A DNA stretch of 64,000 nt from Eledone cirrhosa (lineage: Eukaryota), in assembly GCA_964016885.1 (NCBI GenBank), contig OZ024745.1, positions 85,808,001-85,872,000 of the forward strand, read 5' to 3'. Both the position numbers and the translations under genes were made by a program. Each line of letters opens with the position of its first letter. Position 1 is the stretch's first letter. Positions 1 through 64,000 of this stretch are shown piece after piece. The notes beneath the pieces were generated by a model that searched no databases, was not told the origin of the DNA, and saw nothing but the letters and a program-made list of their open reading frames with translations.

Positions 1-1416
1 GGACCAAAGCTATACGGACCCCCCAAAACACTGATCAGGTAAGAAAAATGGTCGCACATGCAATAGGGGCTAGTATCAAAACTACCCTAAAGGGCCACAT
101 ATTTAAGTTCAATGAGAAAATCTACACCCAAAATGAGGGAGCAGCCATCGGCGTCAGCATAGCTGGTGATGTTGCCAACCTTTTCATGGTATGGTGGGAA
201 AGGAGACTTAAAGATCTCCTTAATGAAAGCTCCATAGACCTCATCATGTACTCTCGTTATGTAGACGATATCAATATAGTTATAAGAACACCCCCACTAG
301 AGAGCACTAACATGTTTGATTTAGAACGTAGCACGATGGAAAGCATCCAGCAGATAGCTAATTCCATACACCAGAGTATAACTGTAACTATCGACTTCCC
401 TTCCAAACACCCTAAACAATAGACTATCTGTATTAGACACAGAACTCTGGATTAACACTATAGACGAGAGAGCCCAAATTCTCCACTCACACTATGCTAA
501 ACCCATGGCCTCCAAATACCTGATACTCAAAAACTCAGCAATGTCCAGTAGTGCTAAGTTTAATATTCTGATCGCAGATTTGGTACGAGTGATGAAGAAT
601 GTGTCCAGCATGTGCGACCCAACAGAAATGGAAAGACACATCCAACACTTCATCAACCGCATGCAGTTCTCTGGCTACAACCAAAGAGACAGAGTCAGAG
701 TATACGAAGGAGCCATGGAAAAGTATAAGACCCTCATAAAACTGGACATGAAAGGAATTTGCCCATTATACAGGAGCAAATCATGGAATAGCTTAGATAG
801 GGCTAGACATAAGATAGGGAAAGCCACATCATGGTACGACAACCAGAGATACTAGAGTGTCATGTTTGTGGACGCCACCCCTGGAGGGAAATTAGCTAAC
901 CAGTGTAGAAAGGCCTTGAGAAAGACCCACTTAAAAATCAAGGTGGTAGAAAAGCCAGGAACCACCATAAAATCCCTGATCAGCAAAACCTACCCTTTTA
1001 AGAAAACCCACTGTACCAATAGGAAATGTATCATATGTAAGGTGAACCCCCGGATAAACTGTAAAACTAGAAACGTAGTCTATAGCATAAGATGTACAGA
1101 GGGTACTTGCAGAAACATGACAACAACATACATAGGTGAGACAGCTCGTAGCATAGGTGAAAGGATAGACCAACACTGGGGGGAACTAAAAGGACGAAAA
1201 AACGGGTCAGTACTATACGAACATGCTAGACAACAACATGACGGTAACATAGACAACATAGAAATTAGAATAATATCTAAACATAGGAATGACCCAGCAG
1301 ATAGGCAAATCAGAGAGACCAGTGAAATAGAAATTAGAAGACCAAAGCTAAACAGAAAGAATGAGTGGAACAAAAACAACACCCAAACAAACAACACTGA
1401 CCTAAGAGAAGTATAA
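1..1416 (+). pseudogene. Penelope-like element RT plus C-terminal GIY-YIG endonuclease (Cys-rich linker, Neptune/Hydra-like); 5' end cut by the window
   Basis: ORFs 48-422 (QNEGAAIG...YSRYVDD), 505-855 and 862-1416 ([43 protein letters not shown]). Frameshift near 420 and in-frame TAG at 853-855. Clade assignment is tentative. Confidence 0.9.
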
Positions 1417-1653
1417 ATAAGTAAATAAATAAAATAAAATAAAATAATATAATAAAATAAAATAAGATAAATAAATACATACACAAGCACAATAACAACA
1501 AGCACATAAACACACACTAGTCACCCAGCAGACACAACACTATACACACTAAATAAATAAATAAATATATAGACAGACTGAATAAAAAAATGGCGTAGAC
1601 ATACAACACAACAGGAGGAAAAAATATAACACAACAGGAGGAAAAAATATAAC

Positions 1654-1695
1654 ACCACTGACGATGTTGCAGATGTACAACGAAAGATTTATGTA
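1654..1695 (+). ncRNA. Degenerate type I hammerhead in PLE 3' pLTR (family O-like)
   Basis: CTGACGA-t-GTTG..CAAC-GAAA-gatt-TA with weak stem I. Same position and same downstream ATGACCCTCCC terminus as the better copy at 35067. Confidence 0.5.
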
Positions 1696-1968
1696 AATTA
1701 TGTAAACTATATATATGTGTTTGTGTCTATATTGTGTCTGTATTATTTTTGACCATCGGTCAGTCAATGGCAACATTGCGGACCGAGTAAGTTAGATCGC
1801 AGATATAAAAGACAGCGAGAAGCGAAAACCAACCAAACAATGAGTGTGTTCTGTTATTAATTCTGGCAATATTACGCAAATATGACCCTCCCCATATATA
1901 TATATATTGTTAGACTTGGGGAGGGTCATGAGAGGGTCATATATATATATATATATATATATATATAT

Positions 1969-2453
1969 GCAAAAGTTCTATTTAAATTGTTGGGATACAA
2001 CTAGTAAATATTTTTATAACTGATATAAAGCACTCGACAAGTATTTGGAGTAGATTTACGATATTAACAAATGGAAACTATATTTATAAAACCATATTTA
2101 TTTCATTATACATATTTCAATGATACCAAGTTAAATTATGGTATGCCTTCATCAGACAAAATACAATACATACCAGTTTTATAAATAAACATTGACGTAC
2201 CCTTTCAAAATGCGAACGTTACTTTTGGATATCCTTAACACTACGACTTACTAAAATAAACAAACCACTAATCTGATGTCTTCCAAAAGTAACAGTCGCA
2301 TTTTGAAAGGGTACGTCAATGTTTATTTATAAAACTGGTATATATCGTATTTTGTCTGATGAAGGCAAACCATAATTTAACTTGGTATACTTGAAATATG
2401 TATAATGAAATAAATATGGTTTAATAAATATAGTTTCCATTTGTTAATATCGT
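1969..2453. mobile_element. Fold-back insertion of family C pLTR with two hammerheads (2101-2161 minus, 2350-2410 plus)
   Basis: Inverted arms around a ~50-bp spacer. HHR TTTTGT-CTGATGA-aggcatacca..tggtat..t-GAAA-t-atgt-ATA-ATGAAA. (TA)n on both flanks. Confidence 0.8.
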
Positions 2454-2669
2454 ATATATATATGTATATATATATATATATATATATATATGTGTGTGTG
2501 TGTGTGTGTATGTGTGTATGTATATGCATAATTACATACAGTGATTTAATGCTTATTTTCATTGATCTTTTGCTCCAGGAACTTGTTGAGTGCTCTAAAT
2601 CTGCTATAAACATTTATACCCTTTTTTAAATATATATTTTTTATTTATTATTTGTCGTATTCCCAACTT

Positions 2670-2880
2670 TTTATTTTCATTTTTATTTTTATTTTTATTT
2701 TTATTTTTATTTTTATTTTTATTTTTATTTTTATTTTTATTTTTATTTTTATTTTTATTTTTATTTTTATTTTTATTTTTATTTTATTTTTATTTTTATT
2801 TTTATTTTTATTTTTATTTTTATTTTTATTTTTATTTTTATTTTTATTTTTATTTTTATTTTTATTTTTATTTTTATTTT
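2670..2880 (+). repeat. (TTTTTA)n simple repeat
   Basis: Direct reading of the sequence. Confidence 0.95.
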
Positions 2881-61059: not shown

Positions 61060-61493
61060 ACGATATTAAATAAATGGAAACTATATTTATAAAACCATAT
61101 TTATTTCATTATATATATTTCAGGGATATCATATTAAAAATATGCTATGCCTTCCTCAGACAAAATACAATATAAACAGTCTTATAAATAGATAGATTCG
61201 ACATACCTTTCAACATCGACTTCAATTTGAAAAGTTGAATTGAAGTCGATGTTGAAAGGTATGTCGAATCTATCTATTTATAAGACTGTTTATATTGTAT
61301 TTTGTCTGAGGAAGGCATAGCATATTTTTAATATGATATCCCTGAAATATATATAATGAAATAAATATGGTTTTATAAATATAGTTTCCATTTATTTAAT
61401 ATCGTAAATATACTCCAAATACTTGTTGAGTGCTTTTATATCAGTTATAAATATTTACTCGTTGTTAACCCAACAATTTAAATAAAACTTTGC
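61060..61493. mobile_element. Family C fold-back palindrome with two hammerheads (~61104-61165 minus, ~61300-61361 plus)
   Basis: Perfect ~165-bp arms around CAATTTGAAAAGTTGAATTG; the right arm has ~88 bp of extra tail. Confidence 0.88.
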
Positions 61494-61819
61494 ATATATA
61501 TTATATATATATATTATATATTATATATATATGTTATATATACAGATCATATATATATTATATATATATATTACATATATATATATTATATATATATATT
61601 ATATGTATATATATATTATATATATATATATTATATATATATATATTATATATATATATATTATACATATATATATATATATATATATATATATATATAT
61701 ATATATATATATATATATATATATATATATATATATATATATGTAGGGGGTGAGTTTTATTGTAGTACAATAAAGCAATGCAGATATCGGATATGTAACA
61801 CTCTACAATTTGTAGGACT

Positions 61820-63650
61820 TTAAAAACACTTGTGAATAGTGCAGTTTTAAATCAACATATGAAAAGTAGTTTTAGAGTGATGTGTTATATTGGGAAAAAG
61901 ATGAGGGGGGATTTGGAAAGGATGAAAAAGAGGAGGAGATGAGAGTAAAGAATGGAGGGGGAGGAATATAATAAGAAAGGATGAGATAGGAGGAAAGATG
62001 GGTGATAGAGAGAGAGACAGATTTTATAACTGAGAAAAATATATTGTTTTACAGAGAGAGGTTAAAAAACCGTTGGAAGATAATATATAAATTAAAAGAA
62101 TTTGAAAATTAACGAAGAGAAAAATTTAAGAATAATGTTAAATTAAGGGTTTAATAATATGTGCGATGAAAAGAAATTGTTAATATGTATTAAGAATAAT
62201 ATTAAGTTAAGGTTTGAATAATGATGGGTTTAATAATATGTGCGATGGAATGTTTTCTCTCTGCCTGCATAAATTCCACAGAACATTCCATAAAGTATAC
62301 AGCTAATATCTAATACTTTACAAATTTAAAATCCTTTTTCTCAAAGGCACATATATATATATACATATATTTCTTTAAAAATATACCCATCTTCTACCTT
62401 ATTTCAATGTTATTTATTATACATTATATAATACTAGTTACCCATTCTATATCATTCCTATTTATCACTTCCCTTTCTTCCTTTTTTTCCTTTTTTCTTT
62501 TAATTTTTAACCTCTAATCTGTACCCTTTCTTCCTAGATACTTCTCAATTCTCATTATTACTCACCACAATATATCCACTCTTCCTTCTTCCATCCTATC
62601 ACTGGCCATAAAACTTACTATTACCCTTTTAAATACTTTATAGTATCACCTTGAAAAATCCTTCGCAAACATAAACATTTTTTGTTACGTTAGATTATTC
62701 ATCCTCAATTCATTAGTTTTTTCTCCCTTTCAGGCTATCTAACTTCTACATATTACACATCACAACACATAAAAACAAACTTAAACCCTAACTAATCTCC
62801 TTTATTACATTATATTATTACCATTAGGAAATACTTCATAAACATACATATTTTGATGTTAAGGTCTTCTTAAACACTATCTCCTTCTTTGCTTTCTGCG
62901 CTCATTTGTAAACAAACTATTTACATATATTACACATACATATTACTTTACATAAAAACATACTTAAACAATAACTAATTCCTCTAAATTCATAATTCAT
63001 CCACTCTTCTACTTCTGTTCACAATATATCCTTAATAACATTACTATTTTTATTTTAATAATACATATCAACAATTTCTTCCCATCGCACATATTATTAA
63101 ACACTTCAATATTCAAACCTTAACTTAATAATATTCTTAATACATATTAACAATTTCTTTTCATCGCACATATTATTAAACCCTTCAATATACAAACCTT
63201 AATTTAACATTATTCTTAATTGTTTCTCTGCGTTAATTTTCAATTTCTTTTAATTTATATATTATCTTCCAACAATTTTTTAACCTCTCTCTGTAAAAAA
63301 AATATATTTTTATAAGTTATAAAAGCTATCTCTCTCTCTATCACCCATCTCTCCTCCTATCTCATCCTTCCTTATTATACTCCTCCCCCCTCCATTCTTT
63401 ACACTCATCTCCTCCTTTTTTCATCCTTTCCACCCCACCCCCTCATCTTTTTCCCAATATCACACATCAATCTTAAACTACTTTTCATATGTTGACTTAA
63501 AACTGCACTATTCACAAGTGTTGTTTAACCTTCATATCATGTCTCCCTATTTTATATGACGAAAACGCAAATGTCATCATATGATGATATTTGTTTTTGA
63601 AATGCGCATAATAAAATACATGGAACTATTTTAACCATCTTTTGATCTTA
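61820..63650. mobile_element. Family M element with diverged inverted arms (~61825-62250 and ~63070-63522) and a degenerate hammerhead at ~63548-63618
   Basis: Reverse-complement match of the arms. (A)TGACGA-long stem II-GAAA-t-gcgc-ATA-ATAAAA, with C3 lost. Confidence 0.6.
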
Positions 63651-63874
63651 TATATTATATATATATATATATTGTATATATATATTATATATTATATATA
63701 TATATATATATATATATATATATATTTATATATATATATATATATATATATATATATATATATATATATATATATATATATATATATATATATATATATA
63801 TATATATATATATATATGTATATATATATATATATATATATACATATATATACAGAGCCCTGGTTTTCTGTTGA

Positions 63875-63956
63875 GCTCTGCTGATGATTGAAATTCCAAC
63901 CGTGACCATCTCCACTGAAAGTTTTCATGAAATAGTCTTTTAAGACTATACAGAGC
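63875..63956 (+). ncRNA. Type I hammerhead, family I second copy
   Basis: GCTCTG-CTGATGA..GAAA-TAGTCTT/AAGACTA-TA-CAGAGC. Confidence 0.8.
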
Positions 63957-64000
63957 ATTTGATGTTATTCCAAATTGAAGGATAAGTGTTTCAAACTTTA

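Follow-up and report, generated by a model that had tools for sequence, protein, structure and literature searches.

Penelope-like elements (PLEs) of the Hydra clade insert into (TA)n tracts and, according to Craig et al. 2021 (PMC8557442), comprise few families outside cnidarians; the same account describes PLE insertions as tandem or inverted copies with a tail. Hammerhead ribozymes (HHRs) are also carried by the animal retrozymes of the non-LTR type (without long terminal repeats), whose link to PLEs was proposed in 2020 (PMC7229834) and argued by phylogeny in 2026 (bioRxiv 10.64898/2026.07.22.740005). In Xenopus, 24 of 57 retrozyme families are reported to be homologous to known repeats, nearly all of them PLEs, with matches at the ends (Li, Clavereau and Pollet 2026), and published counts reach 120,000 retrozyme copies in axolotl and more than 6000 motifs of 16 families in coral. 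In this study, a stretch of 64,000 nt (hereafter the window) from contig C5 of the 3.0 Gb genome of the octopod Eledone cirrhosa (OZ024745.1, positions 85,808,001 to 85,872,000) was analysed. We consider it probable that the window is a (TA)n pile-up of 10 PLE families with HHRs in their pseudo-long terminal repeats (pLTRs) and of five retrozyme families, likely copied into the same tracts by a PLE reverse transcriptase (RT)-endonuclease from predicted RNA circles. This reading is built on the motifs themselves, their links to open reading frames (ORFs), the Hydra-clade motifs of a 745-aa protein, inverted two-ended insertions in (TA)n and the single haplotype found in each young array.

The type I core (CUGANGA...GAAA...UH with helices I-III) was searched with a strict descriptor against 40 local dinucleotide shuffles and with a relaxed scored scan (threshold score of at least 9.5) against 100 shuffles. 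The strict descriptor gave 25 exact-core matches in the window (shuffle mean 0.075, maximum 1) and 33 with one core mismatch allowed (1.3 in shuffles), while the relaxed scan gave 39 matches versus 0.69 (maximum 4). Two of these 39, at 44654 and 48075, lie inside ORFs and were taken as false; together with candidates at 19445 and 55775 they were discarded, each being either in an ORF or a single weak match. Permitting a longer helix II recovered further families, and a homology inventory of the window finally counted 53 full-span motifs in 17 families, plus four half motifs, in good agreement with the about 50 motifs of about 16 families claimed by an earlier, sequence-only reading of this DNA, whose family letters could not be mapped onto the families named here (A, B, F3-F8, F10-F12, F14-F17, R467, R529 and R593). 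By eye, the core or closing pairs are damaged in 12 of the 53 motifs; the other 41 have an undamaged type I core if the family-wide variants U3-A8, U4C and U4A are counted. Ten families are PLE pLTRs (30 motifs), five are ORF-less tandems (20 motifs) and two, F7 and F11, were placed in neither class. There are 11 motifs of family B, eight of A, six of R467, five of F3, three of F10, two each of F4, F5, F6, F7, F8, R529, R593 and F15, and one each of F11, F14, F16 and F17. Rfam largely misses them: among the matches listed (150 of 385), only the 467-bp family was hit (HH9, 37.7 bits, the gathering score being 52).

The five ORF-less families (A, R467, R593, R529 and F6) consist of head-to-tail units of 420-636 bp with one type I HHR each (A about 420-430 bp, R467 467 bp, F6 636 bp). 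Their longest ATG frames span 30-123 aa, and they correspond to non-LTR retrozymes; A and R467 align over their whole length. In their few-hundred-bp ORF-less tandem units with one type I HHR each, the strong self-pairing of the monomer and the presence of PLEs alongside, they resemble the animal non-LTR retrozymes as described in 2020 and 2026 (Cervera and de la Pena 2020, PMC7229834; bioRxiv 10.64898/2026.07.22.740005). The R467 monomer folds at z = -9.5, and stem II of R529 contains a compensatory pair (16 + 9 paired versus 2 mixed). Each family has hundreds to thousands of dispersed candidates in the genome, of which only the best 40 of 428-4046 were scored per family.

Across the five families, 104 of 125 3' ends run into (TA)n (background 8%), and A, R467, R593 and R529 each have two preferred 3' ends, 55-165 nt apart. 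Both orientations were present in 14 of 14 R467, 11 of 24 R593, 12 of 19 R529 and 5 of 9 A loci examined. As the retrozyme ends lie 60-300 nt beyond the predicted cut, the copied template would span the cut site. Among 77 R467 units in 12 arrays, those within an array are 0.5-0.6 nt apart, also across the inversion, and those of different arrays 6.7; young R467 arrays carry one haplotype over both arms, and one such array reaches 18 complete units with no ORF. A PLE insertion footprint directly on the arrays distinguishes these families from the animal retrozymes as published accounts present them, as does the U6-like octamer with TATA of A and R467 (see below), and the absence of similarity to the sampled pLTRs sets them apart from what is reported for the Xenopus retrozymes.

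In the window, family A forms tandems at 5991-6971 (+; HHRs 6071-6118, 6241-6288 and 6661-6708) and 20946-22269 (+; HHRs 21182-21229, 21615-21662 and 22042-22088), with further copies at 11830-12234 (+, with a short inverted start; HHR 11935-11982) and 60202-60699 (+; HHR 60430-60477). A (TA)n-flanked R467 insertion at 26185-28473 has an inverted arm (26185-26894; HHR 26479-26526, -) and a tandem arm (26894-28473; HHRs 27272-27319, 27739-27786 and 28206-28253, +), and a second one with inverted arms occupies 48714-49812 (HHRs 49007-49054, -, damaged, and 49652-49699, +). R593 is present as a partial tandem at 29509-30246 (-; HHR 29731-29827, with a U3-A8 core and a 59-nt stem II) and a copy at 51112-51712 (+; HHR 51545-51641), and R529 as a tandem at 23139-24084 (-; an intact HHR at 23308-23396 with a long stem II, and one with a changed cleavage site at 23841-23924). 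F6, which forms its 636-bp tandem units elsewhere, lies at 37100-37602 (+; HHR 37276-37360) and 63859-64000 (+; HHR 63873-63959). One extended R467 array alone was located outside (TA)n (L365, G000 C6); it has a target duplication of ~9-15 nt overlapping the element end. A phage search with R467 gave no match.

These tandems could alternatively be satellite DNA that arose without RNA circles, unequal crossover or slippage having multiplied one original PLE-type insertion. Local amplification also predicts one haplotype per array, and a higher-order pattern of 13 units was found in an old A array (L108, G000 C28) of 23 units with shared variants; that array is a retrozyme turning into satellite DNA. 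For the families as a whole this origin is nevertheless unlikely: hundreds to thousands of candidates per family are dispersed, young arrays have their two end positions in common, abut (TA)n there and often comprise several units in each inverted arm, and their units differ only by scattered single changes.

Turning to the autonomous elements, 10 of the 17 families lie at a constant distance from an RT/GIY-YIG ORF, either in the window itself or at other genomic loci, so that the proposal of 12 out of 16 families without an ORF was not borne out; the links had been missed at first because the 3' untranslated regions (UTRs) are long. Judged by protein motifs, eight of the linked families are assigned to the Hydra clade and two (F15 and F16) to the Neptune type. 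One common endonuclease, as had been suggested, is unlikely, since the autonomous families number at least eight of the Hydra type and two of the Neptune type. The earlier picture did hold in one respect, in that autonomous PLEs and ribozyme elements without an ORF insert into each other and use (TA)n as a common target; an ORF-less majority was not supported.

Family B is the pLTR of a PLE encoding the 745-aa protein. The first look at the genome gave 52,347 candidates for this protein, and the best-scoring 150, which alone were scored, are 95-100% identical to the window protein; the best-scoring named relatives are from Argonauta hians (35-41% identity). It contains RWK-like and DKT motifs, a C-terminal GIY-YIG domain, a CxCX5C linker and CxxC/CxH without CCHH, which is the definition of the Hydra clade. 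Such motifs are present also in the F3 protein and the C-terminal ones in that of F10. Naiad/Chlamys PLEs have an N-terminal GIY-YIG domain and no canonical HHR; the B protein, with its C-terminal endonuclease and associated HHRs, was therefore ruled out as one of them. The short single ORF with C-terminal GIY-YIG, RWR(K), DKT and the CxCX5C linker, the CxxC and CxH around conserved E and N with no CCHH, the pLTR HHR, the (TA)n targeting and the tandem or inverted insertions with a tail all agree with the Hydra-clade PLEs as described in PMC8557442. Unlike that description, which places few families outside cnidarians, at least eight occur here within one 64 kb, with 3' UTRs reaching 1.3-3.7 kb, some of them TA-rich, and with U4C or U4A fixed in two families.

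Complete pLTR-ORF-UTR-pLTR tandems were found for B (L192 and L194) and F5 (L300, with a UTR of 3.3-3.7 kb), and these loci, as well as window positions 13040-15798, have the structure of a PLE insertion (partial pLTR tandem with HHR, inverted 5'-truncated copy and one-ended tail). Among the other families, the ORF end precedes the HHR by 886-976 nt in 11 of 39 F4 matches and by 230-290 nt for F16 in the window and six other matches; ORF links were found in 15 of 20 F8 loci, 5 of 6 extended F3 loci (extended for sharing the longest flank), 3 of 20 extended F10 loci (collinear) and 3 of 21 F14 matches. F17 is joined to a Hydra-type ORF end, and F15 and F16 to Neptune-type ends, the translations of which contain a CX2-5CxxC linker and CCHH in GIY-YIG; the sole GIY-YIG call by Pfam concerned a Neptune-type fragment (E 2.9e-4, just under the cut-off). 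F12, present in the window only as half motifs, has one supporting ORF-linked locus. The F10 3' UTR (L211, L219 and L186) holds a remnant resembling the F12 half hammerhead, left by an old nested insertion that became fixed in F10. The core CCGAAGA (U4C) is kept in 18 of 19 distinct F3 copies and CAGAAGA (U4A) in 38 of 39 F4 matches. These U4C/U4A cores and the very long helix II variants of 50-60 nt were not found in the published descriptions of hammerheads consulted, with which the short palindromic helix III, the extra base starting helix II, the U3-A8 variant and the proposed circular template are shared; a short palindromic helix III implies that cleavage would occur in dimers.

Family B is the most frequent in the window. 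A PLE with a ~1.3 kb 3' UTR lies at 41984-44820 (-; ORF 43519-44820, pLTR HHR 42106-42171), and 5'-truncated copies at 13040-15798 (-, with a long 3' UTR; pLTR HHR 13179-13243, ORF 14856-15692, inverted pLTR piece 15693-15798) and 54954-58043 (+, with an inverted half pLTR and 3' UTR; GIY-YIG 55140-55514, damaged HHR 57987-58043). Inverted pLTR pairs occupy 2051-2460 (HHRs 2099-2163, -, and 2348-2412, +) and 61070-61488 (HHRs 61102-61167, -, and 61298-61363, +), a 3' UTR with pLTR 58326-59377 (-; HHR 58373-58438), and single HHRs 11554-11618 (-, damaged core) and 31763-31828 (-). Of the other Hydra-type families, F10 has opposed 3' UTRs and pLTRs at 2535-5832 (HHRs 4061-4124, +, and 4369-4431, -) and a damaged HHR at 16024-16087 (+); F8 an inverted 3' UTR/pLTR pair at 25095-25940 (HHRs near 25157-25204, -, and 25831-25878, +); and F5 an insertion at 32544-36975, in which two TA/TG-rich 3' UTR arms in inverted orientation each run out into a pLTR (HHRs 32557-32612, -, and 36907-36962, +). 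F3, a pLTR of the Hydra clade, is represented by an HHR with the U4C core at 16455-16508 (+), an element end with an inverted pLTR at 51988-53481 (HHRs 52189-52243, -, and 53374-53428, +) and a damaged HHR at 54568-54617 (+). An F4 pLTR with the U4A core lies at 31546-31721 (+; HHR 31622-31679), F4 and F3 pLTRs follow each other at 40811-41488 (+; HHRs 41063-41120 and 41407-41456, respectively), and an F4 PLE at 46358-48284 (-; broken ORF 47312-48283) has a 3' UTR that stops at a TA tract, immediately short of the HHR. The F14 3' UTR and pLTR are at 62505-63645 (+; HHR 63548-63618, damaged core), a Hydra-type ORF end with the F17 pLTR at 45057-45977 (+; HHR 45840-45886), an F12 pLTR end at 50050-50222, with two half hammerheads at an inversion and a full U3-A8 HHR at other loci, and a Hydra-type ORF fragment with no HHR assigned at 8455-9459 (-). 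The Neptune-type sequences comprise an ORF fragment (1-1416, +; RT, CxxxxCxxC linker and GIY-YIG with CCHH, stops inside) with its F16 pLTR hammerhead, which has a very short stem I (1651-1700, +), a GIY-YIG end with the F15 pLTR between the F5 arms (34472-35317, +; HHR 35064-35115) and another F15 element end (39817-40388, +; HHR 40137-40188).

Every family might in principle be the terminal repeat of an autonomous PLE, with the seemingly ORF-less ones derived from unsampled ORF-bearing parents and multiplied by template jumping. Indeed, F3, F4, F5, F8, F10 and F14 first seemed ORF-free beside their HHRs and were linked only once flanks had been extended, and the 24 of 57 Xenopus families mentioned above (Li et al. 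2026) are of this kind in their homology. We regard this as distinctly improbable here. A, R467, R593 and R529 form arrays of complete ORF-less units (the 18-unit young R467 array being the longest), few ORF ends occur up to 4 kb upstream, and their distances vary (1 of 247 R467, 0 of 33 R529, 3 of 47 R593 and 4 of 72 A matches), and the units match none of the 11 autonomous families compared. Given the five ORF-less tandem families, the supposition that all families are ordinary pLTRs of PLEs is refuted.

Mobilisation of the retrozymes by a LINE (long interspersed element) RT-endonuclease instead of PLEs is very unlikely. The window does hold LINE RT fragments (30563-31243), non-PLE sequence adjoins most of the U6 copies examined and no sequence tie between retrozymes and PLEs was found; yet the footprint, i.e. 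inverted arms, a tail at one end and (TA)n on both sides, is that of the autonomous PLEs here and of the PLE structure given in PMC8557442. Chance matches in AT-rich repeats, of which the loose scan yields a few (e.g. in the ORFs at 44654 and 48075), can be dismissed as the source of the motifs given 39 matches versus 0.7 in shuffles, the compensatory pairs and the fixed position in pLTRs.

Copying of retrozymes by PLE enzymes may be pictured as follows. Transcription would run through the tandem units, with an internal U6-type promoter as its probable start in A and R467, and dimeric hammerhead cleavage would release unit-length RNA, which an RtcB-type ligase would close to circles (RtcB is reported to circularise retrozyme monomers in vitro). 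The endonuclease would then nick (TA)n, and reverse transcription would be primed by both target ends, at two T/A-rich sites lying downstream of where the RNA was ligated; the outcome would be a pair of multi-unit arms pointing outwards.

Regarding the promoter, three independent U6 genes of this genome have ATGC[AT]AAT[GT]AG at -76 to -78 and TATA at -30. A and R467 share the octamer 11-mer with all three, 80-88 (A) and 100 (R467) nt before the HHR core; in R467 the octamer and, 33 nt later, the TATA-like box lie at window 27180-27227 (+), and the only T5 run of the unit is ~40 nt upstream. In both families the single sense run of at least five T per unit is at the long insertion end, just before the octamer. 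The same layout of octamer, TATA and HHR was found in a further family outside the window (L077, 9400-10000; L084, 7700-8300), and 6 of 10 octamer matches in a 400-kb genome sample (described below; A array L108 excluded) are in these HHR families. The gap between octamer and TATA-like box is 33-35 nt versus 38-40 in U6, i.e. 4-6 nt shorter, the intervening proximal sequence element match is weak and the octamer also lies within a predicted RNA hairpin, so that A and R467 carry no more than a candidate internal U6-type promoter for RNA polymerase III (Pol III). Local alignment of U6 upstream DNA with the units gave nothing beyond TA-rich sequence, only the short motifs agreeing. Pol III use, if real, means that full units would need read-through of the T-run; for R593, R529 and F6, which have no octamer and several sense T-runs, the Pol III model was rejected. 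The closest likeness is newt satellite 2, a hammerhead tandem repeat with an internal snRNA-like promoter described as Pol II (Coats et al. 1994, as cited in PMC2220036); TATA and the single T-run here would rather suggest Pol III. No literature was found on U6 promoters in molluscs. The U6 genes themselves (L331, L332, L333-L343 and L346-L350) have compact promoters and include a tandem cluster on C19 with a ~1.8 kb period.

At one locus (L344, G000 C10, ~1400-1720), a full-length U6 passes without overlap directly into the first F5 nucleotide beyond the predicted hammerhead cut. An inverted long F5 end stands before the U6, and the short F5 end and (TA)n come after the junction. This single case is most simply read as ligation of a 5'-OH hammerhead product to U6, with a PLE enzyme then copying from both target ends. 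U6/LINE-1 chimeras made by RtcB, in which the 3' end of full-length U6 is joined to retroelement RNA that is then retroposed, are reportedly similar, the partner end here being a predicted ribozyme cut. Sequencing-run contigs over R467 and F5 contained tandem joints and the two end types, with no further cut-site junction among the matches listed, and no literature joining U6 chimeras, RtcB and hammerheads was found.

Several observations weigh against the PLE-driven copying of RNA circles. The junction at the cut site is one of 15 non-gene U6 copies examined, and 5' truncations do not pile up at the cut site (F3, F4 and F14 being uninformative, as TA matches swamped them). F6 has no inverted arm and one end type only in 19 loci. 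Outside repetitive sequence, none of the 11 autonomous families compared has anything in common with a retrozyme unit, and hence the comparison points to no donor enzyme; scoring only the best 40 of 428-4046 candidates may leave room for a rare ORF-linked parent. The 13-unit period in the old A array indicates that arrays also grow at the DNA level, and a star-phylogeny test on that array failed. The UTRs of B contain only 3% TA tracts, contrary to local seeding of targets (below). Cleavage, RNA and circles are throughout predictions from DNA.

Most of this hammerhead collection is known biology, namely PLE pLTR hammerheads and non-LTR retrozymes. Four points have no precedent in the literature searched: the size of the collection in an octopod, a PLE footprint on retrozyme arrays that are clonal, the candidate promoter resembling that of U6, and a U6 joined at a predicted ribozyme cut. 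Among the papers listed, none on hammerheads in cephalopods or octopus Penelope elements was found by title or abstract (octopus families may be given in the supplementary files of Craig 2021 and the 2026 preprint), nor any by title on twin priming in PLEs; in the main text of a 2026 Octopus vulgaris repeat annotation the words 'ribozyme' and 'Hydra' are absent, and the hammerhead class therefore looks unannotated there. A wider reading can be offered tentatively: about half a million hammerheads, a Penelope cycle recorded in DNA (hammerhead cut, host-ligase joining, sometimes to U6 by mistake, and rolling-circle copying from both target ends), and a retrozyme superfamily that parasitises Hydra-clade enzymes, bears no relation to the sampled pLTRs and has a U6-type Pol III promoter of its own. 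The reason for the hammerheads and partial tandem repeats of PLEs and the identity of the enzyme that mobilises animal retrozymes can both be put to the test. As presented in the 2020 and 2026 papers, the PLE link relies on co-occurrence and sequence similarity; here, it is the PLE footprint on young arrays and a U6 chimera at a predicted cut. A trans-mobilisation assay could start directly from the intact 745-aa Hydra-clade protein and a 467-nt candidate cargo.

The genomic setting was assessed with 40 other 10-kb stretches (400 kb), placed at round coordinates and not drawn at random. The share of perfect (TA)n tracts is 15.7% in the window and 7.5% in the sample, and the HHR count climbs with the TA fraction (rho 0.54, 40 stretches). 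The sample gave 74 matches, 17 of them in one array, i.e. ~12 per 64 kb, and the window is at ~3 times the genome average in hammerhead density and not unique. In a longer-helix scan, 71 of 86 sample matches recur at another locus, and in the pooled loci 36 HHR clusters have at least two distinct copies, one cluster being false (within an ORF). Weighted by length, the estimate for the genome comes to 0.50 million motifs (0.30-0.75 million by bootstrap; 0.41 million if the array is left out), which exceeds the published axolotl and coral counts, though it covers all families and the descriptors differ. TA tracts make up 23-30% of F5 and 14-15% of F10 UTRs, F14 copies are nested inside F10 UTRs at other loci and an F15 element sits between two F5 arms in the window. 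With several elements having TA-rich UTRs, each insertion would add fresh (TA)n targets, and nesting would build up locally.

The claim that most unique blocks between TA tracts contain an HHR was overstated, as none was found in SINE-like (short interspersed element-like) blocks, LINE fragments or long 3' UTRs. Two repeat families in TA tracts, which we take to be SINE-like, have no HHR (first family 6969-7401, 16690-16865, 28728-28903 and 53787-53958; second family 37904-38079 and 50724-50914), and ARAGORN found no tRNA. The LINE-like ORF fragment at 30563-31243 (-) contains a PHD finger (Pfam E 4.5e-7). Of the two unclassified HHR families, F7 is an inverted pair at 38922-39258 (HHRs 38973-39019, -, damaged, and 39087-39133, +, U3-A8) and F11 lies at 46096-46325 (-; HHR 46119-46182). 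A further repeat (10100-10673, 22608-23173 and 24946-25113), in which no HHR was found, adjoins a GIY-YIG fragment at 9819-10259. Finally, a palindrome with two octamer sites is located next to a family B pLTR at 11707-11813.

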